Positions 1-44,407 of a stretch of DNA of 45,805 nucleotides are shown piece by piece. This DNA is from Escherichia virus fEg-Eco19. The translations under genes were made by a program, and so were the position numbers. The stretch lies in sequence record NC_073314.1. One strand, written 5' to 3'. The notes under the pieces are model-generated. The model ran no database searches. It was not told where the DNA came from and saw only the letters and a program-made list of their open reading frames with translations. Numbering within the stretch: the stretch's first letter is position 1; the number at the start of each line of letters is the position of its first letter.

Positions 1-68
1 TCACCAAACGCAACAATCAAAGCGACTATTGCAGGAGACGCAACAATACAAACACCAATAAAATTTAC

Positions 69-97
69 TTGCACACTAAGATATAATAGGCTACTAT
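69..97 (+). promoter_or_regulatory. sigma70-like promoter (TTGCAC-N17-TACTAT) with AATAG-N4-CTATT palindrome over the -10
   Basis: Read directly: TTGCAC, 17-nt spacer actaagatataataggc, TACTAT; ~30 nt upstream of ORF 129..653. Same architecture recurs near 10641-10669(-), 21039-21067(-), 44695-44723(+). Confidence 0.4.
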
Positions 98-128
98 TCA
101 TTTACACAAACGAGAGGAGAGACAGAAG

Positions 129-653
129 ATGAGTAACAAAAACGAAGTATTCGAGTACCTGATTGACCAGCTACGGCAGCAGGTAACTAGCAACCGGTGC
201 GAAGACCTGGCGCACGAGGTGTTGTCACTCAAGAATCAGTTACGTGATGCGTCGGCGCTGGTGGCTGAGTTACAGAAAGAACTTGATATCGCCAATAGCA
301 CCGTCGTTCGTTTGCGTAAAGAGATAGCTAAGTCTACCGGTGACATTGGAGAATACATCGATGCCACGGAGCAATCTGGTTGCCATAAGGAAGATACTCA
401 GTACAACGCCTGGAGGCCGCATTATGGTGCACGACAACCTGTTCCGGATGGGACTATGGTATTTATCCGGTATCGCAACGGGGAGGAGCCAAAACACAGT
501 GTAGCAGCGGAAAAGCGGTCGTGGATTTGGGATGGAACATACGCAGACATAGTGGAATACAAGATTGACACACAGGAATGTGAACATGACTATCGTTTGG
601 TTCTGTGGTGTAGCGACTTACAGCAGTGCTCTAAATGCGGGGAGATCAAATGA
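129..653 (+). CDS. hypothetical protein, N-terminal coiled coil, Cys/His-rich C-terminus
   Basis: 174-aa ORF with ATG start and GAGAGGAGAG RBS-like stretch upstream; no recognisable catalytic motif. Confidence 0.5.
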   Translation: MSNKNEVFEYLIDQLRQQVTSNRCEDLAHEVLSLKNQLRDASALVAELQKELDIANSTVVRLRKEIAKSTGDIGEYIDATEQSGCHKEDTQYNAWRPHYGARQPVPDGTMVFIRYRNGEEPKHSVAAEKRSWIWDGTYADIVEYKIDTQECEHDYRLVLWCSDLQQCSKCGEIK

Positions 654-855
654 CCAGCATATTATTTATCTGGGTATTGTCCGCAGGCCAGATGCAACTA
701 GCGGCATCAGAAACGTTTTATTCGATGGAGGCGTGCCAGTCAGCGGCACGCGCCGCAGAGAACGCGCACTTTCTGTTTCAGGGTGACAAGCCCAACGACT
801 CAGAGGTACGCGCTATCTGCTCACCTAAGCGACTTGGTAAACAGGAGAAGTGATT

Positions 856-1038
856 ATGGTACAGAGATATAGCTACAACCCAATGTTCGGGTTTACTCCT
901 GATGTTGAAGGCGGGTTAGTGCTTTACGAAGACTACGCGAAACTTGAAGCCGAGTTACAGAAATACAAAGACCAGTTCCCGGATTACGTCGAGTGCGCGA
1001 ATTGCGGGTCAATTACACATGTGGAAGGGGTGGAGTGA
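856..1038 (+). CDS. small hypothetical protein (tandem paralog A)
   Basis: Starts MVQRY; shares MVQRY...Y..Y.KLEA.L with the next ORF; C-terminal CxxC. Confidence 0.4.
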   Translation: MVQRYSYNPMFGFTPDVEGGLVLYEDYAKLEAELQKYKDQFPDYVECANCGSITHVEGVE

Positions 1039-1232
1039 TGGTACAGAGGTATGAGGTGGAAAAATGGGGCCTGCCAGAGCCTGAGATGGCTGAGTACGCA
1101 TACGGCGATTATGTAGAATACGACGCTTATCTTAAACTGGAAGCAAAGTTACGTGAATTCGCTGAACAGGTAATGTACGAACCTTGTTCGAAAGTTACAG
1201 AAGAAATGGCCCGCGAGATTCTCGGAATATGA
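1038..1232 (+). CDS. small hypothetical protein (tandem paralog B)
   Basis: Starts MVQRY at a TGATG stop/start overlap with the preceding ORF. Confidence 0.4.
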   Translation: MVQRYEVEKWGLPEPEMAEYAYGDYVEYDAYLKLEAKLREFAEQVMYEPCSKVTEEMAREILGI

Positions 1233-1522
1233 GCCTTGCAACTGACATCCTGAAACGAAGCGGCCTTGCGCCGCTGTCACCGAGAACGAACACCCGAATA
1301 TACAAGCGCCGCCGTAACGCGCTGTACCCTGAGATTCAAGCCAGACGCAAAGCAGTCCGCGCCTGCGGATTCCAGAACGGGAAGGCCGTGAATCTCGGTG
1401 AGTTTAAAACAAAGGAACGTGCAGCAATCGCTAATCGGTTATTTAATTACTGGAAATCGCTGGGGTACGATGATATTCCGACGAAACCGCAGAGACGACA
1501 ATACATCTGGAGACATAAATGA
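1229..1522 (+). CDS. hypothetical basic protein
   Basis: ATGA overlap with upstream stop; internal ATG of track ORF 1184..1522; Arg/Lys-rich. Confidence 0.4.
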   Translation: MSLATDILKRSGLAPLSPRTNTRIYKRRRNALYPEIQARRKAVRACGFQNGKAVNLGEFKTKERAAIANRLFNYWKSLGYDDIPTKPQRRQYIWRHK

Positions 1523-1956
1523 CTACTATCGCGTTTGACGGAAAGACAATGGCTTGTGACACGCGGGTATCGGGAAGCCATACCTACAACACAGACACAA
1601 AGATTTACGAGAATGAGTTTGTTGTTATTGGGGTGGATGGAGATGCGGGGGTTGGTATCCTTTTAGTGAAGGACGACGGTATTTTAGTGCCTAAGCATTA
1701 TGATTTTGATTTCTCTGCTTTGGTGTGGGTTAAAGACATCGAAACGTTGTGCAAGGTAGAGTTCTATAAATCGTGGGATTGTGCCCTTAGTTCGGTTATT
1801 CCAATTGCGGACAGTTTTGCCGCCGTTGGTTCTGGTGCGCCTTATGCATTAGCGGCTATGGAATGTGGCTATTCGGCACATGGTGGCGTGGCGGTGGCGT
1901 CGAAGTTCGACACTAACACCGGCGGCAAGATTATTACCAAACAACTATTAGGATAA
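1519..1956 (+). CDS. HslV/proteasome beta-subunit-like Ntn hydrolase (short form)
   Basis: N-terminus MTTIAFDG (Thr directly after Met) and C-terminal AVGSGAPYALAAMECG resemble HslV TTIVSV and AIGSGGPYAQAAARAL; 145 aa, shorter than bacterial HslV. Confidence 0.5.
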   Translation: MTTIAFDGKTMACDTRVSGSHTYNTDTKIYENEFVVIGVDGDAGVGILLVKDDGILVPKHYDFDFSALVWVKDIETLCKVEFYKSWDCALSSVIPIADSFAAVGSGAPYALAAMECGYSAHGGVAVASKFDTNTGGKIITKQLLG

Positions 1957-2015
1957 TTCCTACCCGTGGTATCCTCCAGTTACTGCATACTTAACACGCA
2001 CCTGGAGGATTCATC

Positions 2016-2324
2016 TTGGATAAATTTACTGAAACAGTGACGGGGTGGCTTCTCGCTGCCGCACTGGTCGGGGGATTGGTCGGACTAAGACAACATAAAA
2101 AGTCTATATCCGGGCCGATTGACGGACTGGTATTTCTCCTCACCGGCTTCGCGTGTGCCATTTTCGGTGCACCTCTTGCTGCTCAATGGTTCGGTATTAC
2201 CGGTGAGCGCGAGATAGCTGGCCTCGGATTCATCATTGCCATTCTCTGGATGCCTATCTATTCCCGCCTTTCTGGCATCGTATCGGGCGGCAATATTGCC
2301 CGCCCAGGAGGACCGCATGACTGA
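2016..2324 (+). CDS. holin-like membrane protein (3 predicted TM helices)
   Basis: Three hydrophobic stretches; immediately upstream of endolysin. Confidence 0.5.
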   Translation: MDKFTETVTGWLLAAALVGGLVGLRQHKKSISGPIDGLVFLLTGFACAIFGAPLAAQWFGITGEREIAGLGFIIAILWMPIYSRLSGIVSGGNIARPGGPHD

Positions 2325-2589
2325 GCTATTCTGGTTTGTCGTAATGCTGGCAATGGGCGCTTCGTCCCTGTTCAACGTGTATAATGAACGCGTGGACGAC
2401 GGGCTGTTCGGGCGTGTTCTCTATATCCTGACTGCTATCGTCTGTGCCGCCGGATGTATCCACCTGTTACAGGGCAGCATGTCACCAACGCTGCCTGAGA
2501 CATTAATCACATTAGTCGCGCTGCGCCAGATTCGCCAGGCGTGGCTGTCATACGGAGGACATAAGCGTGTCTCGAAATATTTCAGATAA
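2317..2589 (+). CDS. small membrane protein (second holin or antiholin candidate)
   Basis: Internal ATG of track ORF 2236..2589 (MTELFWFVVMLAMG...); two hydrophobic helices; overlaps endolysin start. Confidence 0.4.
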   Translation: MTELFWFVVMLAMGASSLFNVYNERVDDGLFGRVLYILTAIVCAAGCIHLLQGSMSPTLPETLITLVALRQIRQAWLSYGGHKRVSKYFR

Positions 2590-3055
2590 TGGATTGCATT
2601 TCTGTGCCGCGTTCGAGGGATTCCGCGGAACTGCGTATCGTGCTACGCCGAATGAGAAGTACCTGACTATTGGTTATGGTCACTACGGGCCAGACGTAAC
2701 ACCAGGTAAGACCATCACACCAGGACAGGGCTTGCTGTTACTGAATCGCGATATGGCTAAGGCTGTAGCTGCTGTTGACGCGGCAGCACACCATTCGCTT
2801 ACACAGGCACAGTTCGACGCCGTGTGTGACCTGGTCTATAACGCCGGTGCAGGTGTGATTGCAGCTACTACTGGCACGGGTAAGGCGCTGCGTTCTGGTG
2901 ATGTTGCGACGCTACGGGCTAAACTGGTGCTGTTTATCAACCAGAACGGCAAACCGCTACTGGGCCTGCGTCGCCGTACTGCAGGTCGTCTGGCGCTGTT
3001 CGACGGTAAACCATGGCAGGAGGCGGAGGCTATTGGACGCGCGGTGAAAGGTTGA
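2567..3055 (+). CDS. endolysin, T4-lysozyme-like (GH24) muramidase
   Basis: FEGFRGTAYRATPNEKYLTIGYGHYG matches the GH24 catalytic Glu / TIGYGH region; GTG start. Confidence 0.8.
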   Translation: MSRNISDNGLHFCAAFEGFRGTAYRATPNEKYLTIGYGHYGPDVTPGKTITPGQGLLLLNRDMAKAVAAVDAAAHHSLTQAQFDAVCDLVYNAGAGVIAATTGTGKALRSGDVATLRAKLVLFINQNGKPLLGLRRRTAGRLALFDGKPWQEAEAIGRAVKG

Positions 3056-10615: not shown

Positions 10616-10640
10616 TTCTCATCTCCTGTTTAAGTTAACT

Positions 10641-10669
10641 GAATAGTACCCTATTATATTGGGGTGTGC
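10641..10669 (-). promoter_or_regulatory. sigma70-like promoter (TTGCAC-N17-TACTAT class) with AATAG-N4-CTATT palindrome
   Basis: Reverse complement reads TTGCACaccccaatataatagggTACTAT; ~30 nt upstream of the ATG at 10615. Confidence 0.45.
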
Positions 10670-10990: not shown

Positions 10991-11350
10991 ATGAATCTTA
11001 AAGCAACTGTCGTAGCCGGAGCATGTTTCGTCGTCCTAGCCTACGCACACGGCATCTATCAATACCGCAGCGGCTGGGGTGAAGGCCGTGCTAATCTCGT
11101 TTCGCAGCAGCAGCAGAAAGCACAGGCCGCGCTGGTGAAGAAAACACAACGGCAGCAGCAGGATGAATCAAAGGCCGCCGCCGCTGACAACGAAGGCAAA
11201 ACGAAATCAGAGGTGATAACCCGTGAAGTCGTTAAGTACATAAGTCGACCCAATAAGGTATCTTGCAAGTTTGACGCTGATAGAGTTAGAATCAAATACG
11301 ACGCTGTCAACAACGCAAACGGGATACCAGGGTATGACGATATTAAATGA
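10991..11350 (+). CDS. putative i-spanin (Rz-like)
   Basis: N-terminal TM helix, then Q/K/A-rich helical region, conserved Cys near C-terminus; 119 aa. Confidence 0.4.
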   Translation: MNLKATVVAGACFVVLAYAHGIYQYRSGWGEGRANLVSQQQQKAQAALVKKTQRQQQDESKAAAADNEGKTKSEVITREVVKYISRPNKVSCKFDADRVRIKYDAVNNANGIPGYDDIK

Positions 11351-11840
11351 TACTTTCTACTACGATGATGGGGTTCTTTACTGGCGTAGCAGTAAGCTCG
11401 CCAATAAAACAGGAACCCCAGCAGGGTGCCTAACTACGCCGAAAGGCGCAAAACGGCGACAGACGATAGAGGTTAGATGGATGGGGAAGGCGTTTCAAGC
11501 GCACCGTCTTATATGGGAACTTTTCAATGGGCCAATTCCGACGCCATATGAGATAGACCACATTGACGGGAACCCACTCAACAATCGTATAGAAAATCTA
11601 AGGCTTGCTACTAGCCAAGAGAACAGTCGTAACGTTGGTCTCACGTCCGCTAATAGTACAGGGTTCAAAGGGGTTTCCAGGTTCCCAAACGGCAGATTCC
11701 GTGCGGACATAAGAATCCGCAACAAGACCAAATACCTCGGTCAGTTCGACTCCCCCGTCGACGCACACAAGGCCTACGTGCAAGCTGCCAAGAAGCTACA
11801 TGGAGATTTTTTCAAATGCGACTGCCAATATTGCTCTTAG
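11334..11840 (+). CDS. HNH homing endonuclease with AP2-like domain
   Basis: AHRLIWELFNG...EIDHIDGNPLNNRIENLRLATSQENSRN, then GFKGVSRF...AYVQAAKKLHGDF; paralogous to 31390..31875 and 33289..33786. Confidence 0.75.
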   Translation: MTILNDTFYYDDGVLYWRSSKLANKTGTPAGCLTTPKGAKRRQTIEVRWMGKAFQAHRLIWELFNGPIPTPYEIDHIDGNPLNNRIENLRLATSQENSRNVGLTSANSTGFKGVSRFPNGRFRADIRIRNKTKYLGQFDSPVDAHKAYVQAAKKLHGDFFKCDCQYCS

Positions 11841-18558: not shown

Positions 18559-19191
18559 ATGTTCTTGTATGAAGAATTTGAAAAGATACCAGCATCAAAA
18601 CGGGCGGTATCATGCCGTAAAACAATCTGCGGAGTCGGTGTCAACGATGCAGATTTCACCACCAGTATTTTCAACGGCAAAAAGTCTGTTAACCACCCGG
18701 TGTACGATATTTGGTGTGCGATGATATTCAGGTGCTACCATGGGTCCGTTAAGCATCCAACATACTCAGGAGTGGTAGTGTGTGAAGACTGGCTGTATTT
18801 CTCCAACTACTTTAAATGGTACAAAGATAACTACGTAGAGGGTTGGCATGTTGACAAAGATTTGCTTACGGATTCTAAAGAATACTCACCGGATACCTGT
18901 ATATTTGTCCCAAGAGTTTTAAACAACTTTCTAACCGACAGCGCAGCGGCTAGAGGTGACCTACCGATAGGCCTTACTTATAGGAAAACAAACGGCAAGA
19001 TTCGATGCAGGGTTAATAATCCGCTAACCGGGGTGCGCGAAAACTTAGGCGATTTTACCGATTTGGATGAAGCCATCAAGGCCAGAACGCTGCGGAAGTT
19101 AGAGATAGCCGGAGAACTTAAGCCACTTATGGATTCCATAGACGGGAGAATCTATCCGAGGGCCGTTTCTGTAATTAAGGCACAACGATAA
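18559..19191 (+). CDS. HNH endonuclease (YGGRGI/EGW-DKD-YSP family)
   Basis: ICGVGVNDADF...IWCAMIFRCY...YVEGWHVDKD...YSPDTCIFVP; paralog of 24270..24920; AT-rich. Confidence 0.55.
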   Translation: MFLYEEFEKIPASKRAVSCRKTICGVGVNDADFTTSIFNGKKSVNHPVYDIWCAMIFRCYHGSVKHPTYSGVVVCEDWLYFSNYFKWYKDNYVEGWHVDKDLLTDSKEYSPDTCIFVPRVLNNFLTDSAAARGDLPIGLTYRKTNGKIRCRVNNPLTGVRENLGDFTDLDEAIKARTLRKLEIAGELKPLMDSIDGRIYPRAVSVIKAQR

Positions 19192-20997: not shown

Positions 20998-21038
20998 GGG
21001 GTAGCTCCTGTTTGAGTTAACATTGTTGGTGTAAGTGA

Positions 21039-21067
21039 ATAGTACCCTATTATATTGGGGTGTGCAA
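21039..21067 (-). promoter_or_regulatory. sigma70-like promoter (TTGCAC-N17-TACTAT class) with AATAG-N4-CTATT palindrome
   Basis: Near-identical to the 10641-10669 element (shared run GAATAGTACCCTATTATATTGGGGTGTGCAA). Confidence 0.45.
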
Positions 21068-24269: not shown

Positions 24270-24920
24270 CTAACGACCCTCTTTTATCAAGGCGATAACG
24301 CGGTCGAACATACCTTCCCTTATCGCCTCTATCTCACATCTTCTTGATTCCGCCGCCCTTATCTTTTCAACAATGTAAGCATCTAGCGCTTCTTCCTGAG
24401 TTTCAAAACGTCCTAGATTAATAGTTTTTTTATCACAGCTCACTGAGGCTTTAAATTTACCTCTAGATTCTTCATAAAAAACACCTGTAGGTGTTCCACT
24501 ATTTTTCTTCTCCTTTAGGAAAACATTCAACCATTTCGGGATGAAAATGCAAGTGGTAGGGCTGTATACCTTATTAATACCAGAGAATATGTCCTTATCT
24601 AGCTCCCATCCCTCCACATAATTACAAAGCCACCATCTACGGAAGGACATAAACCTTTGCCACCCATGCCACACAGTTACATCCCTGTACGCAGGCCTTT
24701 TGTTTTTATACTCGGCGTCCACGCAACGTTGGATCATCCCTCGCCATGTAGCGTACGCCAGACACGTCTCACGGCTGCCGTTTATCTTGGGGCTAACCAC
24801 ATAATCGGCGTCATTTATGCCAAAACCACATATAGTTGCGCGCTTAGTTTTGCTGCTTTTGTTCGCAGGATAATTCGCACGCAGCCACATGCTCTTGGCT
24901 ACTTTTTCGGTTGGCATCAT
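24270..24920 (-). CDS. HNH endonuclease (YGGRGI/EGW-DKD-YSP family)
   Basis: Internal ATG with AGGAGA RBS; ICGFGINDADY...YVEGWELDKD...YSPTTCIFIP; paralog of 18559..19191; AT-rich. Confidence 0.55.
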   Translation of the reverse strand: MMPTEKVAKSMWLRANYPANKSSKTKRATICGFGINDADYVVSPKINGSRETCLAYATWRGMIQRCVDAEYKNKRPAYRDVTVWHGWQRFMSFRRWWLCNYVEGWELDKDIFSGINKVYSPTTCIFIPKWLNVFLKEKKNSGTPTGVFYEESRGKFKASVSCDKKTINLGRFETQEEALDAYIVEKIRAAESRRCEIEAIREGMFDRVIALIKEGR

Positions 24921-24955
24921 GTTAGTATCTCCTAAACTAATAGGAGTATCTTGCC

Positions 24956-25456
24956 ATGTCTTCTTTGAAATTTCCAGCAAGTTTAAAGCCGGTGGTGTCG
25001 AAAGGCTACTCAATGACCAGACGTAACAACGTCTGGAGCGTCGATTTAGCTGGCGGAGGTGTACGTCAGGGACGCGACACGTATTACGACGTGTTCCCGA
25101 TAAGCGTAACCCTGATTACATCGGCGCTAGGGCGGCAGGCGTTTCTGTCGTTCCTTGAGAAAGTCGATGGCGGTGCGTCAAGTTTCTGGATGGCACATGA
25201 CTTCGGCATGGGTATCGAGGATTACCAGGTAACAATCACGTCAACCATCGCTGAGTCCACCGAAGACGGGATTAACTGGACAATTACTTTCACGGCAACC
25301 GCTGAGAAATCGCCGTTCCAGGATCTTGAGAACCAGTGCCTGATTAACAATCTGCCGGATTTGTACGGTTGCTATGGTGACGGGCTGGGGTGTTTCCTTA
25401 AAGCCTACGGAACTGCACAATCAACGTTTCCACGAATTTGGGACCCGATGCAATGA
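24956..25456 (+). CDS. minor tail protein (distal tail, M-like by position)
   Basis: First tail gene after tape measure; AGGAG RBS. Confidence 0.45.
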   Translation: MSSLKFPASLKPVVSKGYSMTRRNNVWSVDLAGGGVRQGRDTYYDVFPISVTLITSALGRQAFLSFLEKVDGGASSFWMAHDFGMGIEDYQVTITSTIAESTEDGINWTITFTATAEKSPFQDLENQCLINNLPDLYGCYGDGLGCFLKAYGTAQSTFPRIWDPMQ

Positions 25457-31389: not shown

Positions 31390-31875
31390 TCACGTCGTTT
31401 CTCCGTGGTTTTCATGAAATCCGTAAGCAGCCTCCGCGGCTTTACGCGCGGCAACAGCTTCGTCAAAATTATCAAACTGTCCTAGATGTATTTTTCTTCT
31501 GTCGACTTTTATCTCTGCCACCCATTTGTTTCTTCTCTTTTCCCGCCATACACCAAGAGCGCCGCTAGTATTGTTTACCCCTATTGATGCGTTGCGGCTA
31601 TTTTCGGTGTTGGTAACTTTCCGTAGGTTGCGTATTCGGTTATCAGTTCGTATATGATTAATGTGGTCTATCTGTTCCTGTGGCGTAAGTTGGTTATCTG
31701 GATTGCAGATATTCCATGCTAACCGGTGTGCTAGTTCTAGTTTTCCGTTTACTCGGATACGAATGTACCCATCCCGTGGACAAAAGCATCCCGCTTTCTT
31801 TCCAATAAAACCCCTACGTTTTGTTTCAGCCCATGTGAAAATACCGGTTTCAGGGTCGTATGATACCTTGCTCAT
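31390..31875 (-). CDS. HNH homing endonuclease with AP2-like domain
   Basis: AHRLAWNICNPDN...IDHINHIRTDNRIRNLRKVTNTENSRN, then GALGVWRE...AAYGFHENHG. Confidence 0.75.
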   Translation of the reverse strand: MSKVSYDPETGIFTWAETKRRGFIGKKAGCFCPRDGYIRIRVNGKLELAHRLAWNICNPDNQLTPQEQIDHINHIRTDNRIRNLRKVTNTENSRNASIGVNNTSGALGVWREKRRNKWVAEIKVDRRKIHLGQFDNFDEAVAARKAAEAAYGFHENHGETT

Positions 31876-33296
31876 TTCTTACTCCTACGTTTCATATACT
31901 CAAGGAGGATATCCTGCACCTGTTTTTTCTCGTCTGTGCGTGAAGTGACAACAGAATCCAACGTATCTTTAGCAATAATCTTGTAGATAAAAACAGGGCG
32001 ATTATACCCCGATTGCTTTTGCCGTACTGGCCCTATGCGCTCTACAACCTGTAAATAGTGTTCGAGGTTCCACCCCTGACTGAAAAATGCCATATGATGG
32101 CCGCCGTCTTGTAGCGATATGCCGTGCCCGGCTGACGCGGGGTGCACGCATAAGATTTCGATTTCACCGCGGTTCCACGCTTCCATCTGCTTATTGCCCT
32201 TCGCACCTTTGGCGAACGCCTGTGCCTGAGGGAATCGCTTAAGGATACGCTCAAGTTCGTGCTTAAACTGATAAGCTACCAGTAACGGTGCACCCTGTAG
32301 CTCCTCCACAATCGACTCTAGCGCATCCAGTTTCGTGTCGTGCACTTTCTCCCATTCTTTGGTTGCTTCACCGTCCGGCCCTGATACATACACAGCACCA
32401 GATGCAATCTGTAAACACTTCGACGTCTTTGCTGCCGCGTTAGCCGCTTCAACTTCTCCGCTCTCAAGTTCCGCGAATAACTTTTCCTCCATATCGATGT
32501 ACGCCTGGCGCGCCTTCTTCGGCAGGTCGATTTCAACAGGGACGATAACGGGCGCTTCGCAGCCAAACCACTCGGCAGCGTCAATCGTGAGACTGATGTC
32601 CTTCATCTTCTGGTGAATTTCATTATCCGCGCCAGGGCGCGCATGATACTCACGTGCCATAGCCGATTTGCCTTTCTGGACAGAGTTAAACCATCGGTCG
32701 GTGAATGCCGTGTATGAAGAACCGAGGCGCTCGCCAGCGTCGATAAACCAGTTCTGACCCCACAAGTCTTTGAGGCCGTTCGGTGACGGCGTTCCCGTCA
32801 GGTTGATGAAACGCTTAACCTTACCGAATGCCACTTTACTAAGCGCCTTTGCCCGCTTGCTGCCACCTGAACGGCTACGGAAAGATTTCAGTTTCGTGCT
32901 TTCATCGGCAACAATAACCGTAAAAGGCCAGTCGTCTTTGCCGTAATAGTCAATAAGCCACTCGATAACTTCGTAGTTTGTACAGACCACATTAGCGTCT
33001 GACTCCAGCGCCGCGATGCGGCGCTTCTCCGAACCAGTTGCATCTACGACGCGCAGACAAGGGAAGTTCCAACGTGCCTGTTCCGCGGGCCACGTACCGG
33101 ATGCAACACGTAAAGGAGCCAGAATTAATACCCGGTCGTAGTCCGTAAGTTGGCCGTTGCGGAACAGTCGGTTGAGAACCCACAACGTTGACCCCGACTT
33201 GCCGCTGCCCATCGAAGCCCAAATATTACAGCGAGGGTGCTGCAACATGAACGAAGTCATGAGCTTTTGGTACTCCCTGCGGGTAAATTTAGCCAT
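31872..33296 (-). CDS. SNF2-family (superfamily 2) helicase
   Basis: Walker A MGSGKSGS, motif II VIVADESTKLK, C-terminal QVVERIGPVRQ. Confidence 0.65.
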   Translation of the reverse strand: MAKFTRREYQKLMTSFMLQHPRCNIWASMGSGKSGSTLWVLNRLFRNGQLTDYDRVLILAPLRVASGTWPAEQARWNFPCLRVVDATGSEKRRIAALESDANVVCTNYEVIEWLIDYYGKDDWPFTVIVADESTKLKSFRSRSGGSKRAKALSKVAFGKVKRFINLTGTPSPNGLKDLWGQNWFIDAGERLGSSYTAFTDRWFNSVQKGKSAMAREYHARPGADNEIHQKMKDISLTIDAAEWFGCEAPVIVPVEIDLPKKARQAYIDMEEKLFAELESGEVEAANAAAKTSKCLQIASGAVYVSGPDGEATKEWEKVHDTKLDALESIVEELQGAPLLVAYQFKHELERILKRFPQAQAFAKGAKGNKQMEAWNRGEIEILCVHPASAGHGISLQDGGHHMAFFSQGWNLEHYLQVVERIGPVRQKQSGYNRPVFIYKIIAKDTLDSVVTSRTDEKKQVQDILLEYMKRRSKK

Positions 33297-33786
33297 TATT
33301 AACCCCGTGGTTGGTATGGAAACCGTATTCTATTTCTGCGGCTTTACGTACCGACAATGCCTCTTCGAACGTCTTAAATCTGCCTAGTTCCATAAGTATT
33401 GTTTTTACACGTATGCGCGCTCGCCAAATACCTTCTTTTATCAAAAATTCCACACCAGTTGCGCCGGTCTTATTACATGTGTACAAGCTCTTGTTCTGCA
33501 TGTTTTGTTGCGTTGTAACCTTACGTATGTTGTCCCCTCTGTTGTTAGTTTTGTCATGATCTATGTGGTCTATTTCATCGTCCGGCCCTAATAAATCATC
33601 AGGGTGTAACGTATCCCACGCTAAACGATGCGCCTGATACATCTTTCCGTCTATTTTTATCCTGACGTAGCCGTTACTTTTACTGCCGCCCGCTATGGAG
33701 CCAGCGGAACGACCTCGCGGGGCAACCACCCATGTGAAAATCCCGGTGTCTGGGTTATAGTCCAGTCTGCCGTCGAAGCATTTCAT
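33289..33786 (-). CDS. HNH homing endonuclease with AP2-like domain
   Basis: AHRLAWDTLHPDD...IDHIDHDKTNNRGDNIRKVTTQQN, then GATGVEF...AEIEYGFHTNHG. Confidence 0.75.
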   Translation of the reverse strand: MKCFDGRLDYNPDTGIFTWVVAPRGRSAGSIAGGSKSNGYVRIKIDGKMYQAHRLAWDTLHPDDLLGPDDEIDHIDHDKTNNRGDNIRKVTTQQNMQNKSLYTCNKTGATGVEFLIKEGIWRARIRVKTILMELGRFKTFEEALSVRKAAEIEYGFHTNHGVNNG

Positions 33787-34494: not shown

Positions 34495-37400
34495 TTACTT
34501 AGCATAGCGTTTCAACTCCGCACCTTCCGCTACAAGAGGGAAGCCTTCTGCCCACTCCGGCAACGCGCACATTAATTTCTCCAGTTCAGCCACCGTGTAC
34601 TCTGGGGTGTCCGGAGTTTCACACACCAGTTCATCGTGTACCGAAAGCACGATAGGATACCCACCACCCTCAACGTTAATCATCGCATATGCCAGTAAAT
34701 CACGGCACAGCGCCTGAACAATGTTTTCACAGGCTTTGCCGCCGTGTGTGTATAGAGTTGTCCATTGGCGGGTTAACTGGTTTTCACCCTGATACTTGAT
34801 TCGCACATTCGTGTTCATCCGTCCGTCTTCGTCTGTTTCCTTTGTCACGCTAACGCCGATTCCCGGATACGAGAGGATACGGCCCGACGGCAACTCCATA
34901 CACAACCACCAACCAGGAACCTTCCTGCCGGATGAATCAAATTCTACAGTACGCCATATGCGGATAGCCCTTTCCCCATTCCTGCGCAAGTGTGCCCCCG
35001 CCCAAAATTCACGACCGGGATTACGAACAGCAGCTAAAATTCCGTCTTTAAGGTCGCGCCAGAACGCTACTGTTTCCGGGTGTGACTCGCGCCACATACG
35101 CTTGATTGCGTCACATGTGCGCCACACTTTCTTATCAAGAATATACGATGGTCGGTCATCCTTTTCACCCGGATGCGGTGGTCGCTTGGCTTCCTGAATA
35201 CGCGCCCACTCATACCCACGCGCGGTAGCAGCCCAGATGTGGTCGGGGAAAGTCCCGTCCATTGTTTTTGCCATCTCAATAAGGTCAAGACCTAAGTTTT
35301 TAGCGAACGTAACGAATGCTCCGACGCCGCCTTCGTATCCGAGTCCAAGCTCGCAGTTATGCGCCACAAGAAAGCCAGAGTCGGAAGCGATAAGAAAACG
35401 GTTGCCGTCTTCCACATCAATCAGGTCGTACACTGGCTCGCAGTAGGTTAATTTCCCGTTCAAGCTCAGCAATGCGGGCAACGGCTGCATCATACTTTCG
35501 TTGAAGCTCAGGTATTCGCCGTCTGTTACGGCAGTTTTCAGAACGGCTGACAAACCGAATGTTTCCAGGTTCGTAGTTACCGTCTGTGTCGATTCTATCC
35601 ATTTCGAGGTTCGGGTCATCCCAGCCTTCCAGAGTTTGAACATATCTAAGAAAAGACCTTTTATCAGTCCTCCACTGGTCAAATACCGTGATGCCTCTTG
35701 CCCCATAGTTTTTATAACCCTTATCCCTGGGGCTTGTTGTCCGCGTGATTGCCGCGGACAGCCGGTTGAGTAATCGCGTTCTGTGCACATCATCCGGCAT
35801 TGCGTCTTCGTAGCAGAAATATTGTTTACGATATTTTTTTGTTGCTTCAAGGGCGCAACGGTTGCATTGAGTGGTTTTACCTGCTCTGACATTGTCATAA
35901 TAGACCCGCCCCGGCATCTCTCCGCAATCACATTGGACGAGTAGTTGTCTTTGGCCTTGTCGTTTTGGTAACTCGCGCAGGATAACCAGGCGTCCATACC
36001 TATCTCCAGGGCGCGGTCCATCATATATTTGTTTGAAACGAGTTGCTTTGCCTGCTTCCAGGAATGCGTCAAGATTTTGTGGTCTTCGGTCATTAGCACC
36101 CCGTCCACATTTATCACCGGTTTCCACCCCATAAGGTGCGCGCCTTTTGTATTCACCCATTTTTCGCCACTCCATACTTTATCTGTCGATGTGACCGCCA
36201 TAATATCCTTAAATCCGCCATAGGTCAAAACTTGGGTATGGCGGTGAAGGCAGGCTTTACCAATCTGGCGTAAGTCTTTGCGTTCTTTCTTAATGTAATC
36301 CGGCTCCATACCAAACATCTTACCCGCGGTTACGCAGTAAATATCCAACCCGGCGCGGAACGTATCGAGCGCGGTTTCTTCACCAGCCAGCCACGCAAGC
36401 CCTCGGCCTTCAACGTTAGAGTAATCGGCAACAACAAACTTATGTCCGGCTTCCGGTATGATGCAGCTACGAACGGTCGATGCCGTTAGCTTGGCCACAT
36501 CGAAACGGCGATGGGCGCGACCCTTAAGTAACGCCGAAATGCCTTTATCCAGCTCATCATCGTGATAGTAACCGCGTGCCAGGTTCTGCGGCTGGAAGCC
36601 TTTACCAGCCCATCGCAGAGTACGTTTTGCCCCACCGTACTGCAAGCAACCACGACGGCGGTCGTCGGACGAGCGGCCTAACAGCAATGGGTTATATTTC
36701 GTTGACGCGGTAGACGCGGCCCCGAGGCGCATTTCGATAATCGCGCGAGCGTCGTCTGGTAAATCATCATCCGAAAGCAGGTCATTAAGCGTCGACTTCT
36801 GCGCATTGTGGATGCGGTGCGCTGGGGCAAGCTCACGCAGAATCGGCAGAAAGTCCTTACCAGTAAGCGAGCCGCCGTATTTGCGTTGGGCTTCTTCCTG
36901 CAACCGTGCCTTGTGCTTCTCCACAGCTTCAATCGCGGCTTCTGCCAGGGCAACGTCAACCTTAAACCCGCGGTCGTTGATTAACTGGTCCAGTTCCAGT
37001 ACACGGTCTTCGAACTCGGAGTTACCCCACCGCGGCAGCTTATGGAAGACTTCACGCATTGCGGTGATGTCACTCACGGCGTATTTGATGAACAGTACCC
37101 ACTCGTCCGGGTGTGTTTCAGCGGTGTAGCGACGGATTTTGTAGTTCTTCGGCGTCGGTTTAGAGAAACGCTGAATCAGCGCCTTGCCTCGTTTGTCTTT
37201 CGCGTTGTCTGCTGACACGCCCAGCACTTCGCACAACGCATCGAGGGAACCCGGCAGCGCGTGACGAAACGCCCAAATCATCGTATCAATGGTGTTGCCT
37301 ACAGGAATATCAAAGTCCCAGCAGTGTTTCATGATGAGCCTATCGAACATTGAGCCGTTGTGCCATACCATCTTGATGCGACTGTTCGGCTTAACCAGAC

Positions 37401-37593
37401 GGCGTAGAGCGCGGTGTAAATCACCCGGCATGTCGCTGCCGTCGGTGCAATCCCATACCTGCACAGGCTCGTCGTCAAAGGCATAGGTACAGATGAGCAC
37501 TTCGGTTGACGGGTGTTCGGCGTAAGCGTAGGAGCCGACTTTCTTCAAATCGGCTTCGGAGAATGTTTCAAAGTCCAGGTATAAGTAGCTCAT
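34495..37593 (-). CDS. family A DNA polymerase with 3'-5' exonuclease domain, interrupted by an intein in motif B
   Basis: Exo motif LYLDFETFS, motif A VVADYSNVEGRGLAWLAGEE, motif B split as RQIGKA | intein | CELGLGYEGG; likely start is the internal ATG (MSYLYLDFET) with AAGGA RBS, track ORF starts at an upstream TTG. Confidence 0.85.
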   Translation of the reverse strand: MSYLYLDFETFSEADLKKVGSYAYAEHPSTEVLICTYAFDDEPVQVWDCTDGSDMPGDLHRALRRLVKPNSRIKMVWHNGSMFDRLIMKHCWDFDIPVGNTIDTMIWAFRHALPGSLDALCEVLGVSADNAKDKRGKALIQRFSKPTPKNYKIRRYTAETHPDEWVLFIKYAVSDITAMREVFHKLPRWGNSEFEDRVLELDQLINDRGFKVDVALAEAAIEAVEKHKARLQEEAQRKYGGSLTGKDFLPILRELAPAHRIHNAQKSTLNDLLSDDDLPDDARAIIEMRLGAASTASTKYNPLLLGRSSDDRRRGCLQYGGAKRTLRWAGKGFQPQNLARGYYHDDELDKGISALLKGRAHRRFDVAKLTASTVRSCIIPEAGHKFVVADYSNVEGRGLAWLAGEETALDTFRAGLDIYCVTAGKMFGMEPDYIKKERKDLRQIGKACLHRHTQVLTYGGFKDIMAVTSTDKVWSGEKWVNTKGAHLMGWKPVINVDGVLMTEDHKILTHSWKQAKQLVSNKYMMDRALEIGMDAWLSCASYQNDKAKDNYSSNVIAERCRGGSIMTMSEQVKPLNATVAPLKQQKNIVNNISATKTQCRMMCTERDYSTGCPRQSRGQQAPGIRVIKTMGQEASRYLTSGGLIKGLFLDMFKLWKAGMTRTSKWIESTQTVTTNLETFGLSAVLKTAVTDGEYLSFNESMMQPLPALLSLNGKLTYCEPVYDLIDVEDGNRFLIASDSGFLVAHNCELGLGYEGGVGAFVTFAKNLGLDLIEMAKTMDGTFPDHIWAATARGYEWARIQEAKRPPHPGEKDDRPSYILDKKVWRTCDAIKRMWRESHPETVAFWRDLKDGILAAVRNPGREFWAGAHLRRNGERAIRIWRTVEFDSSGRKVPGWWLCMELPSGRILSYPGIGVSVTKETDEDGRMNTNVRIKYQGENQLTRQWTTLYTHGGKACENIVQALCRDLLAYAMINVEGGGYPIVLSVHDELVCETPDTPEYTVAELEKLMCALPEWAEGFPLVAEGAELKRYAK
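35356..36252 (-). mobile_element. intein (299 codons) in DNA polymerase motif B
   Basis: Hint blocks in polymerase frame: N-terminal CLHRHT, block B LMTEDHKILT, blocks F/G VYDLIDVEDGNRFLIASDSGFLVAHN followed by Cys. Confidence 0.7.
35417..36175 (-). CDS. HNH endonuclease ORF inside the intein, in a different frame from the polymerase
   Basis: 252-codon ORF offset from polymerase frame (37647-36175=1472, not a multiple of 3); GYKNYGARGITVFDQW...EGW...DRIDTDGNYEPGNIRFVSRSENCRNRRR; shares EGW...DKD...YSP motif with 18559..19191 and 24270..24920. Confidence 0.55.
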   Translation of the reverse strand: MEWRKMGEYKRRAPYGVETGDKCGRGANDRRPQNLDAFLEAGKATRFKQIYDGPRPGDRYGRLVILRELPKRQGQRQLLVQCDCGEMPGRVYYDNVRAGKTTQCNRCALEATKKYRKQYFCYEDAMPDDVHRTRLLNRLSAAITRTTSPRDKGYKNYGARGITVFDQWRTDKRSFLRYVQTLEGWDDPNLEMDRIDTDGNYEPGNIRFVSRSENCRNRRRIPELQRKYDAAVARIAELEREINLLRASVRPD

Positions 37594-37745
37594 TTCTTTT
37601 TCCTTAAATCCAGTGCCTTCGTTTCGCTTAATCTTATTTTCATACAATCACGACAAATCCACACATGTCTGTACCCGGCGCGGTACTCATCCGCGTACCA
37701 CGGAAGTGGCTTCATGTATCGGTATACGTGCTTGCAGAAAAACAT
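37590..37745 (-). CDS. small Cys-rich protein (51 aa), coupled to polymerase start
   Basis: Translated by eye (MFFCKHVYRYMKPLPWYADEYRAGYRHVWICRDCMKIRL...); stop overlaps polymerase ATG as ATGA. Confidence 0.25.
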   Translation of the reverse strand: MFFCKHVYRYMKPLPWYADEYRAGYRHVWICRDCMKIRLSETKALDLRKKK

Positions 37746-37758
37746 TATTTTCGACCCT

Positions 37759-37785
37759 TAGTAAAAAGGCCCAATGAAGGGCCTC
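37759..37785 (-). terminator. rho-independent terminator (minus strand)
   Basis: Reverse complement: AGGCCC-ttcatt-GGGCCT followed by TTTTACT; just downstream of the SSB-like gene stop. Confidence 0.45.
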
Positions 37786-37804
37786 AGTTAAATTGGTTCA
37801 GATA

Positions 37805-38437
37805 TTAACGGCGACGACGTTCGCGGCGAGGTGCTTCATCTTTTTCATCGTCATCGTCTTCCAGGTCATTGACGCTTGCGGCGACTTTAGAACCACCAAA
37901 CGCTTTACCTTCGCCAACATATTTAATTGCCAGCAGGTTAACGCCTAGAACTTTATATTTCTGGCTGAACCAGATTTCAACGCTTACATTAGCTACGCAG
38001 CCACTGTAAACCTGTTCACCTTCAATCTGTTCGCCGTCTACGTTGAAGTCCTGCTCTACCTGAGTCTCTCCTTTTTTAGATGTTACAATCAGTGGCTGTT
38101 TCTGTGCCTTAGCTTTGAAGTAGAAGCCTTCCGGGAAGTCTTCAAACGGATTGTCGCGTTCAGCAATATCTTTAATTGCACATTTATCCATGTGCTTACC
38201 TTCGCCGTAGTTGGACTTCATCCACTTCTCGGCAGCGGCTGCACCTAACGCTTCTTCAACTACAGCGTAGACAGTGTCGTAGAGCGCGTCGATTTGCGCG
38301 TGGTCAGACGGCAGGATTATAGTCGCGCTGTACTGGCCTTTAGTGATGGAGCCATCATCGTTTTCACGGTCTTTTTCGCGTTCGAATACGTTAACCCAGG
38401 CAGTGTTTACTTTACGCAGATTCAGCTTAATACCCAT
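37805..38437 (-). CDS. putative single-stranded DNA-binding protein
   Basis: 210 aa with acidic DLEDDDDEKDE stretch near C-terminus, in replication module; assignment by analogy only. Confidence 0.35.
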   Translation of the reverse strand: MGIKLNLRKVNTAWVNVFEREKDRENDDGSITKGQYSATIILPSDHAQIDALYDTVYAVVEEALGAAAAEKWMKSNYGEGKHMDKCAIKDIAERDNPFEDFPEGFYFKAKAQKQPLIVTSKKGETQVEQDFNVDGEQIEGEQVYSGCVANVSVEIWFSQKYKVLGVNLLAIKYVGEGKAFGGSKVAASVNDLEDDDDEKDEAPRRERRRR

Positions 38438-38493
38438 ATCTCGATTCCTCAGTTTTTAGTTTACTCCGGGAAGCTGCCCGGCCAGTGATTAGA

Positions 38494-38522
38494 ACTATAA
38501 TAGCCAACTATTCAGGTGTCAA
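38494..38522 (-). promoter_or_regulatory. sigma70 promoter TTGACA-N17-TATAGT with AATAG-N4-CTATT palindrome in spacer
   Basis: Reverse complement reads TTGACAcctgaatagttggctatTATAGT. Confidence 0.5.
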
Positions 38523-38526
38523 CACT

Positions 38527-39768
38527 TTATTCCAAATCTTCTTCACTAACCTGATTCCACTCAGGCCGTTTGTCGTCTGCCGTTGTGATGCATGGGGCAC
38601 CTGGTTTACGTGTGATGAAGTCTTTCAGTTCTTCTTCCGGCACAACTTTAACCGCTTCGGTCGGCGTCATGAGCACTTCTTTAGTCAGCTTGTCGCCGTA
38701 GAGTTCTGTTACTTTCTCCGCGTCTTTCCACGCACGATTGCCCATCTTACCTTCAACCAGCTTGTACCCAGGAACTTTCTTACCGGAATGCAACGCGGCA
38801 GCCATAGCTTTCTCAACCTTGTCGATGTGCTGGCGCAACAACGGCAACTTCTCGTACTCAGCTACGAGTTCCTCCGGCGTAAGTTCCAGCGCAAAGTCGT
38901 CCTCCAGTTCTTCCGCCAGCACCGCGTTGACGGTTTTTGTACGCGCGGCGCACTGCTCTGAGAAACGGCACCATTGGCAACCGTCGACAGACGGCCTGAA
39001 GTCCGACGCTTTCAGGTTCTTTTTACCACGGAAATACGCATCAAGAGCTAACAGCGCCCGTTTCTGCGCAAACTTAGCGAACAGTTCCAGACCTTCAACC
39101 GAGATGTCCCACTCCGACGCGCCGCCAGCGTATGGCTGAAAGATGACCAGACGAACGGTTGTTATGTTATAACGTCTCTTGAGTCGGCGATAAACACCTA
39201 GAGCGTAGAGCATAAGCTGCTTGTTTTCTTTCGCTTCGACACGATGCCGTCCTGTTTTCAGGTCGCCGATGATAAGCATGTGCCCGTCAGTGTTAGCCAG
39301 TTCCTGAACGGCAACAAGGTCAGCGGTTCCGAACGTCTCAACGCCTTCATACCCAGGATGCAATACCTCAGTAAGATTGACGCGCATTTCCAGCTTGGCG
39401 TAAGTTGCTACATCGATAATCGGTTTGCAGTAGTCGGTGTACTTTCGCACCTGCTCAATCATGTCCGCCGTAATCAGTACCGCGCCTTTCATCGGGCTGA
39501 TTAGCGCCTTAATCTGGCCTTTACCCTCATCCAGCACGTAAGCGCCAACTTCACGCTCTAACGGCAACGCAGTGCCGCGGATATAAGCGTTGAGATGGAC
39601 TTCAGCTATGGTGTGGCACGCTGTCCCCGTAACGGCGGATTTACCCGACGTGTTAGGAATATCTTTTTCACAGGCCAGTGATGCGGCGCATGACAGCCAT
39701 TTTTTAGCACCTGACGGCGAAAGTAAGGCGTGAACATCGTTATTGCCGCCGCGTTCTTTTAGAATCAT
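38527..39768 (-). CDS. PD-(D/E)XK exonuclease, Cas4/RecB-like, with Cys cluster
   Basis: N-terminal SPSGAKKWLSC, GTADLV...IGDLKTG, QLMLYALG, and Cys cluster C-x...GCQWCRFSEQC. Confidence 0.65.
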   Translation of the reverse strand: MILKERGGNNDVHALLSPSGAKKWLSCAASLACEKDIPNTSGKSAVTGTACHTIAEVHLNAYIRGTALPLEREVGAYVLDEGKGQIKALISPMKGAVLITADMIEQVRKYTDYCKPIIDVATYAKLEMRVNLTEVLHPGYEGVETFGTADLVAVQELANTDGHMLIIGDLKTGRHRVEAKENKQLMLYALGVYRRLKRRYNITTVRLVIFQPYAGGASEWDISVEGLELFAKFAQKRALLALDAYFRGKKNLKASDFRPSVDGCQWCRFSEQCAARTKTVNAVLAEELEDDFALELTPEELVAEYEKLPLLRQHIDKVEKAMAAALHSGKKVPGYKLVEGKMGNRAWKDAEKVTELYGDKLTKEVLMTPTEAVKVVPEEELKDFITRKPGAPCITTADDKRPEWNQVSEEDLE

Positions 39769-40127
39769 CGTAAACTCTCCAAATACAAGTTTAATACCTG
39801 TAGCTGTTCTTCTGAGGGGGTGAAAGAATCATCGCGATGTAAGTCGCTTAACTGTTGCAACATTCCTGCGAACTGACGTCTTGCGTCAACAGCGGCCATG
39901 TGATGCTTTTCACTTTTGTATATTAATGTTTTCGGGTAATCCTCAAGCCTACCAGAAGATTTATTCACGCGGAGCGCCCGGGCTTCATGCGCAATGTGGA
40001 TGTACTTTTTGCCGTTTTGTAACACAGTAGCTACGCCGCTGTTCTTTCTGCGGTCACCGACGGTGTAAACCTTGTCACCGCTGCGCAAATTAAGCCACCA
40101 TTTATCCGTCATACCCTGCTCCCCCAC
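39765..40127 (-). CDS. hypothetical protein
   Basis: 120-aa ORF, GTG start, overlapping neighbours in operon. Confidence 0.4.
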   Translation of the reverse strand: MGEQGMTDKWWLNLRSGDKVYTVGDRRKNSGVATVLQNGKKYIHIAHEARALRVNKSSGRLEDYPKTLIYKSEKHHMAAVDARRQFAGMLQQLSDLHRDDSFTPSEEQLQVLNLYLESLR

Positions 40128-40381
40128 TGGTCAATTAAATGTCTGGTCTGGTGCTGGCAATGCATGGCCCATCCATACATCGACTCGAAGACATAAAAGT
40201 CAGGCTTGGCAAAAGTCGTGCGCTTAATCTGCGACACATGACGGCCTATATCTTTAGCCCGCGGTACTTTGCCTAAGTACGCCATCTCTTCCATCTGGTG
40301 CGCACCTGACGGCGCACGCAACAGCCACAACGCCTCTGTGTTATCCCGCCTGTCAACGGCGCGGTAGAGTTGGTAAATCAT
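40109..40381 (-). CDS. hypothetical protein
   Basis: 90-aa ORF in operon. Confidence 0.4.
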   Translation of the reverse strand: MIYQLYRAVDRRDNTEALWLLRAPSGAHQMEEMAYLGKVPRAKDIGRHVSQIKRTTFAKPDFYVFESMYGWAMHCQHQTRHLIDQWGSRV

Positions 40382-40391
40382 AATTACGACC

Positions 40392-40424: not shown

Positions 40425-40925
40425 TTATTCTTCTTCGAAATACTTGTTCTTGATTGCTGTCAGGCGTTCCAGGTACTCGGCCAGGTCTTCGTCTTTAATC
40501 GCGGCAATCTTCATCTTCTTACCGGTGAACTCTTCCAGCAGTTCATCAGAATCGTCGCACGCGGCATCGCTCGGACCTTCGTTAATTGCATCGTCGATAG
40601 CCTGAATCTGGTCACGAAGAGACTGGTAATCGACTTCTTCTTTCTCTTCTTCTGGTTCTGGCGTCGGCTCCTCTACTTTAGCTTTACGCGGCTTACGTTT
40701 TGGCTTCTCTTCTTCTGCCGGTTTAGTGTCGACGATGTCTTCACCTTCAACCGGGATTTCTTTTGTTTCTTCTTTAATACTTTCAGAGAACTGCTCAATT
40801 TTATGAGCGGCTACCGCGGCAGCCTCTTTGGCAGTAGTTGGCGCGAACTGTTTCGCACTATTCGCAGCAATCAGTTCATGTGCAACTACGAAACGTTCCA
40901 GTAATACTAAGAATTTCTCTAACAT
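40425..40925 (-). CDS. acidic coiled-coil protein, early gene
   Basis: 166 aa, Glu/Asp-rich with a central KPKRKPRKAK patch; driven by the strong promoter at ~40957-40985. Confidence 0.5.
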   Translation of the reverse strand: MLEKFLVLLERFVVAHELIAANSAKQFAPTTAKEAAAVAAHKIEQFSESIKEETKEIPVEGEDIVDTKPAEEEKPKRKPRKAKVEEPTPEPEEEKEEVDYQSLRDQIQAIDDAINEGPSDAACDDSDELLEEFTGKKMKIAAIKDEDLAEYLERLTAIKNKYFEEE

Positions 40926-41030
40926 TTGTTTCTCTCCTCTCGTTTGGTATGGGCTAACTATAATAGTGAACTATTCACATGTCAATGGGCTTTTCTAAAA
41001 TAATTAATATGGTACTATTCACATATCAAC
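40889..41030. repeat. direct repeat copy 1 (142 bp), divergent promoter/operator region
   Basis: Identical by eye to 41310..41451; contains the first 12 codons of ORF 40425..40925, TTGACA-N17-TATAGT (minus), an AATAG-N4-CTATT palindrome and a plus-strand TGgTACTAT extended -10. Confidence 0.7.
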
Positions 41031-41309: not shown

Positions 41310-41451
41310 CGAAACGTTCCAGTAATACTAAGAATTTCTCTAACATTTGTTTCTCTCCTCTCGTTTGGTATGGGCTAACTATAATAGTGAACTATTCACA
41401 TGTCAATGGGCTTTTCTAAAATAATTAATATGGTACTATTCACATATCAAC
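41310..41451. repeat. direct repeat copy 2 (142 bp)
   Basis: Second copy of promoter/operator region plus a 12-codon 5' fragment of ORF 40425..40925; also contains the last three codons and stop of the primase gene. Confidence 0.7.
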
Positions 41452-43806: not shown

Positions 43807-44095
43807 ACCGTTTAGCCAACTCTTCCAGCAAATTTTTATACTCTTCAAAATATTCCTCGACCAAATCATCGCCGAAATAGAAGTCGATATACTCGAGATT
43901 ATCTCTTACGTTAAGCGACGCCGACATGGTGCTTAGTTGACGTAAGCTAATTAGCTTCATTTCTGTTTCTACACAGAAAGGCCGGTAGGTATCGAGGTGG
44001 CAAGAGATGTTGAAGCATAAAGCGAACTCTCCCGCCACGGAGTGAACCATATACACTTCGTTTTCTGCTTTATTGTGGAAAATTACACCTTTCAT
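43805..44095 (-). CDS. hypothetical protein
   Basis: 96-aa ORF overlapping upstream gene stop. Confidence 0.4.
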   Translation of the reverse strand: MKGVIFHNKAENEVYMVHSVAGEFALCFNISCHLDTYRPFCVETEMKLISLRQLSTMSASLNVRDNLEYIDFYFGDDLVEEYFEEYKNLLEELAKR

Positions 44096-44274
44096 TTCAC
44101 ATTCTCCTTAATCCATTCTTCAACTTTATTACGGTCAAATGTACCTGGTAAACGGCGACCCATAACCTTAATACAACAATCAGGGAATTTACCACTGCGC
44201 AACCAGTTATTAATTGTCTGACGTGTTACCCCAATACGCTCGGCTACTTCATTCTGTGTCATGTAATGCTGCAT
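44092..44274 (-). CDS. AlpA/excisionase-type HTH regulator
   Basis: Internal ATG with AGGAGA RBS; MTQNEVAERIGVTRQTINNWLRSGKFP matches AlpA-family HTH. Confidence 0.55.
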   Translation of the reverse strand: MQHYMTQNEVAERIGVTRQTINNWLRSGKFPDCCIKVMGRRLPGTFDRNKVEEWIKENVK

Positions 44275-44401: not shown

Positions 44402-44407
44402 GGTTTT

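Follow-up and report, generated by a model that had tools for sequence, protein, structure and literature searches.

Two unrelated families of paired small genes in an accessory block of a Kagunavirus genome

The whole 45.8-kb stretch of DNA analysed here, hereafter the window, represents the entire, circularly permuted genome of a siphophage of the genus Kagunavirus (Guernseyvirinae). It carries two pairs of small open reading frames (ORFs), pair A (A1 and A2) and pair B (B1 and B2), all four of which are present at the coordinates given in Table 1. In megablast comparisons with deposited phages, both ends of the window matched siphophages of Escherichia and Salmonella that belong to Kagunavirus and Jerseyvirus (Guernseyvirinae), over 200 in number and 85-95% identical. 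In phage 590B, window positions 44400-45805 correspond to 35585-37044 and window positions 1-3055 to 37045-40391, that is, they are contiguous, so the last base of the window abuts the first. The location of the pairs at both ends of the window, as reported in the first-pass annotation, is therefore an artefact of where the circularly permuted genome was opened: the two ends form a single continuous plus-strand block of small genes, which pairs A and B share. This block is situated between the replication module and the HslV-like peptidase/lysis cassette and consists of two adjacent operons. Reading of the sequence revealed overlapping stop and start codons (TAATG, ATGA, TGATG) at nearly every junction of both chains, so that the genes in each are translationally coupled.

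Table 1 Features of the small-gene block and its surroundings, in the order of the circular genome, with further copies of the promoter-like element
Feature	Position	Strand	Remarks
Helicase-primase	41440-43611	minus	first in the gene order
HTH gene	44092-44388	minus	between helicase-primase and the intergenic region before the B operon
Promoter-like element	44695-44730	plus	precedes the B operon by ~20-25 nt
B operon	44749-45717	plus	five small genes, among them B1, B2 and one for a DUF551 protein
First gene of the B operon	44749-45039	plus	96 aa; C-terminal tail TTASNHDARADDSEGGCR
B1	45039-45236	plus	65 aa; MRIRI family, long form; 11-residue loop insertion
B2	45233-45388	plus	51 aa; MRIRI family, short form; start overlaps the B1 stop (ATGA)
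Terminator-like hairpin and T-run	45759-45780	plus	divides the B operon from the A operon; same hairpin in 590B
Promoter-like element, second copy	69-104	plus	precedes the A operon by ~20-25 nt
A operon (second small-gene chain)	129-1522	plus	includes pair A
First gene of the A operon	129-653	plus	174 aa; coiled coil; C-terminal EC.H...CSKCG zinc-ribbon-like tail
A1	856-1038	plus	60 aa; MVQRY family; AGGAG Shine-Dalgarno sequence 8 nt upstream
A2	1038-1232	plus	64 aa; MVQRY family; start overlaps the A1 stop (TGATG)
HslV-like peptidase, two holins, endolysin			downstream of the A chain
Promoter-like element, further copies	10636-10657 and 21032-21053	minus	core match

Both operons are preceded by a promoter-like element. 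Its 22-nt core, ATAATAGGNTACTATTCAYTTA, was found in four copies in the window, with zero expected, and each of these copies closely precedes the start of a gene. When all four are aligned, the conserved element extends to ~37 nt, comprising TTGCAC, a conserved spacer of 17 nt, TACTAT and a conserved leader, and the element ahead of the B operon has an exact pattern match in 29 relatives examined. The sigma-70 consensus is matched at only 8 of 12 positions, so the element may need a phage factor. The four elements probably act as promoters, and both operons probably share a temporal class. The pairs had been ascribed to early regions: they do belong to promoter-proximal small-gene operons beside the replication module, and it is this position that suggests an early class for both. 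Upstream of the B operon, a sigma-70-like promoter matching at 11 of 12 positions (44372-44401, plus strand) is followed by an ORF-poor, strongly structured stretch up to 44640 (fold z-score -4.9), in which a hairpin with 13-bp arms (near 44428-44460) precedes a terminator-like, GC-rich one (44601-44622). No Rfam family matches this stretch, which may represent an operator region, a leader or a small RNA. Scans of the complete window for tRNAs and Rfam families likewise returned no matches.

Several other features of the window were recorded. ORF 635-853 (plus strand; 72 aa, or probably 67 aa from the probable start at 650; phrog_3766) lies directly upstream of A1, and its N-terminus, MTSILFIWVLSAGQMQLAAS, appears by eye hydrophobic and signal-peptide-like, so that its product may be exported. 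The gene at 1519-1956 (plus strand) immediately precedes the holins, and its counterparts in relatives carry the annotation HslV-family peptidase or ATP-dependent protease; a Pfam search with it was empty at 1e-3, and NCBIfam yielded only weak matches to HslV and proteasome beta (E 0.02-0.08). Three scattered paralogous ORFs with an HNH_3 domain (11271-11840 on the plus strand, 31390-31875 and 33289-33786 on the minus strand; 34-46% identity), two of which also have a weak AP2 domain, are probably homing endonucleases. ORFs 18559-19191 (plus strand) and 24270-25013 (minus strand) are 35% identical across 204 aa. Finally, a perfect 142-nt direct repeat (40889-41030 and 41310-41451, 421 nt apart) is found at the 3' end of the helicase-primase gene and could be either a real duplication or an assembly artefact.

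A key question is whether the four ORFs are real genes and whether the members of each pair are really related. The proteins are very short (51-65 aa), and pair A reaches only 24.3 bits by BLASTP (E 2e-5; identity 16/44), which leaves room for the suspicion that the similarity arose by chance or that the ORFs are not genes at all. All four ORFs possess a Shine-Dalgarno sequence and overlapping stop and start codons, and relatives carry annotated counterparts. The local alignment score of pair A is 58, compared with 25.5 +/- 5.0 for shuffled sequences, none of 5000 of which scored as high; removal of the first five residues leaves a score of 52, a value equalled by 3 of 5000 shuffles. When the profiles of A1 homologues and A2 homologues were compared (hhalign), the probability was 99.2% (E 1.8e-19). 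Pair B is more similar (BLASTP 37.4 bits, E 1e-10, identity 24/57), with an alignment score of 88 against 21.9 +/- 4.2 for shuffled sequences and of 87 without the first five residues, neither of which was attained in 5000 shuffles, and B1 and B2 cross-match each other's PHROG family (phrog_10916 and phrog_30395). The shuffle tests and the profile-profile comparison, together with hundreds of conserved homologues, pN/pS values below 1 and the confidently predicted fold of B1, refute chance similarity and spurious ORFs, to which we give practically no credence. The paralogy of the tandem small genes proposed in the first-pass annotation is thus borne out for each pair by significant similarity in BLASTP and shuffle tests, for pair A also by profile alignment and for pair B also by PHROG cross-matches, and pairwise alignment extends the similarity past the shared starting residues. 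Control comparisons of A with B remained at chance level; families A and B are unrelated to each other. The window therefore carries two true pairs of paralogues, which are old duplicates.

The family A proteins share a common scheme. A fixed M-V-x-R-Y start, predicted to form strand 1, is followed by a hypervariable N-cassette of 12-25 residues, which is predicted to be a small beta-hairpin and ends in G-x-[WYL]-V-x-Y; the rear of the protein consists of a conserved hinge helix, YEDYAKLEAEL, and one of many interchangeable tails. In A1, these parts are the N-cassette SYNPMFGFTPDVEGGLVL, the hinge in exactly this form and a CxxC tail (QKYKDQFPDYVECANCGSITHVEGVE), while A2 is composed of the N-cassette EVEKWGLPEPEMAEYAYGDYVE, the hinge YDAYLKLEAKL and a tail of the EILGI type. 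A1 falls into phrog_29624 (E 1e-45) and is 98% identical to hypothetical proteins of fFiEco03 and fPoEco01; a protein 100% identical to A2 is encoded in fFiEco02, fFiEco03 and fPoEco01. In family alignments, residues 1-5 (MVQRY) and 24-60 are nearly invariant, and residues 6-23 are unalignable and variable in length. The AF2 model of A1 (pLDDT 68) contains predicted strands at residues 4-8 and 12-15, a helix at residues 24-40 and a disordered tail.

Profile searches among 5.8 billion proteins yielded 439 clusters for family A and 669 clusters for its N-module, and the DNA around family A clusters measured at most about 46 kb among the matches listed, which is consistent with phage genomes of this size. 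Parsing into cassette, hinge and tail was performed for 213 members from the 669 protein clusters retrieved, and these proteins formed 26 N-cassette clusters and 24 tail clusters, with 15 of the 26 cassette types joined to at least two tails. The cassette of A1 in the window is also found on an A2-type tail (P0043), and that of A2 on an A1-type tail (P0001). Some relatives have optional coiled-coil inserts or a zinc-ribbon-like extension, and the C-terminal tail of the first gene of the A operon is the very module that extends some family A proteins in relatives (BLASTP against P0100, E 5e-5). Two chimeras were also identified: in one (L036, 3670-4008), an A1-type gene is joined to an A2-type tail at DYV|KLE, and in the other (L013, 3827-4498), the N-terminus of a homologue of ORF 129-653 is joined to the family A CxxC tail. 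The architecture of family A is thus modular, with many different pairings of cassette and tail among relatives. These pairings probably arise by recombination at the conserved sequences of the start and the hinge. On the basis of the sequences, we rejected the idea that a diversity-generating retroelement causes the cassette variation, since cassettes differ by indels, cannot be aligned and display no adenine-specific substitution pattern.

The substitution patterns differ between the modules. Among relatives, pN/pS peaks in the N-cassette, where it was compared between members of one cassette type, at 0.63 in A1 and 0.20 in A2, as opposed to 0.07 in the hinge and tail of A1 and 0.03 (hinge) and 0.12 (tail) in A2; the values for family B are 0.35 (B1) and 0.29 (B2). 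All values are below 1, and relaxed constraint would give the same numbers for the cassettes, so these do not demonstrate positive selection. The CxxC tail was also considered as a sequence conserved at the DNA level, that is, as a dual coding/RNA element. Across 23 loci, its nucleotide diversity at codon positions 1/2/3 is 0.034/0.027/0.14, compared with 0.053/0.031/0.21 in the neighbouring core gene, and the third-position diversity rules this possibility out. The CxxC tail is under ordinary purifying selection acting on the protein.

A fixed five-residue start with hypervariable sequence directly after it could also mean that MVQRY and MRIRI are targeting or processing signals on differing cargo, directing proteins to the capsid, as in the internal proteins of T4, or serving as a tag for an HslV-like peptidase. 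The gene of such a peptidase is present in the same operon (1519-1956), and in one relative a neighbouring small gene is labelled "internal head protein"; this label, however, is automated and concerns a different gene. In the structure models, residues 4-8 of A1 and 2-5 of B1 are predicted to form strand 1, so the fold itself accounts for the conservation of the N-termini. Moreover, distant members of family A keep only the pattern M-V-x-[RK]-[YF], and no cleavage motif is evident. We regard such signals as highly improbable.

Family B is of a different nature. The AlphaFold model of B1 (pLDDT 91.3, pTM 0.78) is a five-strand SH3-like barrel, and the short form, B2, lacks the 11-residue loop of B1; as modelled with this confidence, family B is a stand-alone SH3-like barrel that exists in a long and a short form. 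B2 is assigned to phrog_30395 (E 1e-39), and the search for family B members returned only 48 clusters. In some B2-type genes (L005, 2688-2900; L037, 2510-2698; protein P0162), the N-terminus contains two to three tandem copies of a 7-residue (21-nt) repeat, RITDRRL, which is present as one copy in the B2 gene of the window. The C-terminal tail of the first gene of the B operon is common to a third family B subtype (MMQIIITD...), which occupies the same position in three loci (L016, L026 and L029). This gene was nevertheless rejected as a third paralogue of pair B: its body is not detectably B-like (hhalign probability 4.5%), and the tail alone is shared.

Another important question is how the two copies of each family came to lie side by side. 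Copy number was compared in 41 Kagunavirus-like loci, anchored on a conserved downstream gene, for family A and in 35 with enough upstream sequence for family B; many of these loci come from a single metagenome project (3300045988). Family A is present in 0, 1, 2 and 3 copies in 7, 18, 15 and 1 loci, respectively, and family B in 0, 1 and 2 copies in 12, 20 and 3 loci. In Jerseyvirus-like loci, 0, 1 and 2 copies of family A were found in 16, 7 and 1 cases, and no family B genes were found. Copy number thus differs among close relatives, and both families are mosaic, in a genus with ~90-99% identity between core genes, in agreement with the fast evolution that had been presumed for such genes. 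In the two-copy loci of family A, a CxxC tail is followed by an EILGI tail in 10 cases and by another tail in 4. The window has the common two-slot arrangement, with a near-invariant CxxC tail in slot 1, an EILGI tail in slot 2 and differing N-cassettes.

The earlier description of the pairs as tandem duplicates of fast-evolving genes implied a recent duplication in place followed by rapid arms-race divergence. The copies are indeed adjacent and co-oriented, their stop and start codons overlap, and their first 15 nt are nearly identical in each pair. They are, however, only 36-42% identical, and both A types and both B types also occur alone in other genomes; these two observations rule out recent in-place duplication of the pairs as they stand. 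At least 10 other Kagunavirus-like loci show the same two A slots, each with its own kind of tail. The matches in other phages indicate that each copy is closer to genes there than to its neighbour. The long and short forms of family B are mostly single in a locus and thus largely behave as alternative alleles. Even with rapid divergence added, recent duplication seems to us very unlikely. The window has more probably gained both forms of family B by recombination between phages.

What could these proteins do? Searches of Pfam, NCBIfam and PADLOC with the four proteins and their neighbours gave no significant match (the only PADLOC hit was that of A1 to a methyltransferase model, E 0.037, 11.5 bits), and the only PHROGs matched were families of unknown function. 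Sequence searches of the PDB with both family profiles reached E ~0.01 at best, with nothing meaningful for family A; a fold search returned only generic SH3-like barrels for family B and nothing for family A. A literature search found no paper on these genes. Small tandem paralogues of this kind had been proposed in the first-pass annotation to be host-takeover or counter-defence factors: they do belong to the fast-evolving accessory genes, while the searches listed here lend the functional part no support, and either role would be a guess. In published phenotyping, Kagunavirus isolates are described as highly sensitive to restriction-modification systems, and their sensitivity to the Old defence system varied; the former makes a broad or strong anti-restriction role unlikely.

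The genes could instead encode small regulators of the phage's own programme, with family B binding nucleic acids through an SH3-like fold (like the integrase C-terminal domain, KOW or Sso7d) and family A as a coiled-coil regulator. The nearby HTH regulator gene and conserved promoter-like elements would fit such a role, as would a weak GD-box-like match of 14-22 residues between the family B profile and designed DPBB proteins (E 0.0096). A conserved programme, however, would not be expected to have regulators that are absent from 7 of 41 (family A) and 12 of 35 (family B) relatives, or whose recognition cassette is swapped among 26 types. In addition, no HTH, RHH or AbrB matches were found in Pfam for the four proteins and family members, and B1 and B2 do not appear notably basic by eye. 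On balance, we consider a regulatory role rather unlikely.

One further match concerns family A outside the subfamily. A weak tblastn match led to a 152-aa "EaE protein" of the Enterobacter phage vB_Ecl_MII_001, which carries EaA and EaE genes. Its N-terminus, MSVTRYE...GGYVSYDDYAALEAK, aligned with the family A N-module profile with a probability of 96.9% (hhalign, E 1.4e-10, residues 3-48). The body of the EaE protein (residues 19-147) matches phrog_492, phrog_27745, phrog_614 and phrog_368, of which 492, 614 and 368 are families of unknown function. No homology to this body was found in A1 and A2, which are 60-64 aa long and have PHROG matches only to phrog_29624 and phrog_37174. A tblastn search with the EaE N-terminus among isolated phages returned only the record of the query. 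In P22, the eaE gene is part of the early-left operon, and in phage epsilon34 the eaE N-terminus has been reported as fused to an HNH endonuclease (PMC2629481). Being shared with this one EaE-annotated protein and fused elsewhere in eaE, the N-module of family A may be a portable head domain.

Taken together, these data suggest that the four ORFs probably represent two unrelated families of small cytoplasmic accessory proteins, encoded in two coupled adjacent operons, with family A being modular and family B SH3-like. Recombination at the conserved start and hinge would shuffle the cassettes and tails of family A, neighbouring copies of which have sometimes fused or been lost among relatives, and the family B pair of the window would have been assembled by recombination between phages. 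Both families would be non-essential protein-binding adaptors or inhibitors, made before lysis under the control of host-type promoters. The hinge helix of family A may dimerise, its hairpin cassette may provide a variable recognition surface and the tail may be the constant business end, with the CxxC tail forming a putative zinc site shared by two chains. A bolder version, which we consider quite unlikely, is that family A is a system of combinatorial recognition, with swappable hairpin specificities, alternative effector tails, copies paired via the hinge, possibly a shared CxxC zinc site, and an adaptor domain common to EaE proteins. If true, one phage would have two specificities available simultaneously to meet variable factors of the host or of prophages, and the N-module shared with lambdoid EaE would be an adaptor domain that is widespread in phage early regions but so far unrecognised.

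Mosaic small accessory genes of variable copy number are an ordinary feature of phages, and the same proteins have already been deposited as hypothetical in published Kagunavirus genomes (98-100% identity) and grouped in PHROGs. Three results are of modest use: the scheme of cassette, hinge and tail shuffling within genes, derived from 213 members; the link of the family A N-module to the long-uncharacterised eaE of P22-type phages; and the conserved promoter-like element common to both small-gene operons. Since Kagunavirus is represented in the BASEL collection and serves as an engineering chassis, the genes are also cheap candidates for deletion, either to make room in the genome or to screen for effects on host range and defence.

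Three known protein families were compared with A1 and family B. Lar restriction-alleviation proteins (PF14354) are, like A1, small phage proteins with CxxC, but they possess a four-cysteine ribbon, as opposed to the single CxxC of A1, and this assignment was rejected with a score of 13.2 bits against a cut-off of 28.6 bits (E 0.11, residues 33-52). For family B, a swapped hairpin of the AbrB/MazE kind and a double-psi barrel were discarded, the predicted monomer being a complete SH3-like barrel and no SpoVT_AbrB match being found in Pfam. The SH3-like domain of FeoA and of the DtxR C-terminus is similar in size to family B and agrees with it in the predicted five-stranded small barrel, and one depositor has labelled the 51-aa form 'FeoA family protein'. 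Compared by eye, the family B motif L-x-x-[FL]-G-[VI]-x-[VP]-G-[DS]-x-F-x-V resembles the core of E. coli FeoA. In Pfam, B1 and B2 had no match to any family at E<=1, and 3 of 25 family members had weak ones to FeoA (PF04023; best E 0.014); no association with FeoB/iron transport or DtxR was found among the scanned neighbours (small phage ORFs, DUF551 and phrog_15836).

The EaE proteins of P22-like and lambdoid phages share with family A an N-module of the form M-x-V-x-R-Y ... G-G-Y-V-S-Y-D-D-Y-A-A-L-E-A followed by a helix, as well as the status of non-structural small genes in a mosaic region, and the fusions of the eaE N-terminus parallel the swapping of tails; the C-terminal EaE body of ~100 residues, in contrast, has no counterpart in A1 and A2. 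The T4 internal-protein locus, the early-gene clusters of T-even phages and the lambdoid ea/nin mosaics are hyperplastic regions of small genes. The pairs in the window resemble them in their tandem small paralogues, in the conserved sequence at gene boundaries, in a copy number that varies between close relatives and in the dispensability implied by absence from some relatives. In those regions, the unit of exchange is the whole gene, whereas in family A it lies within the gene, in the cassette, hinge and tail.
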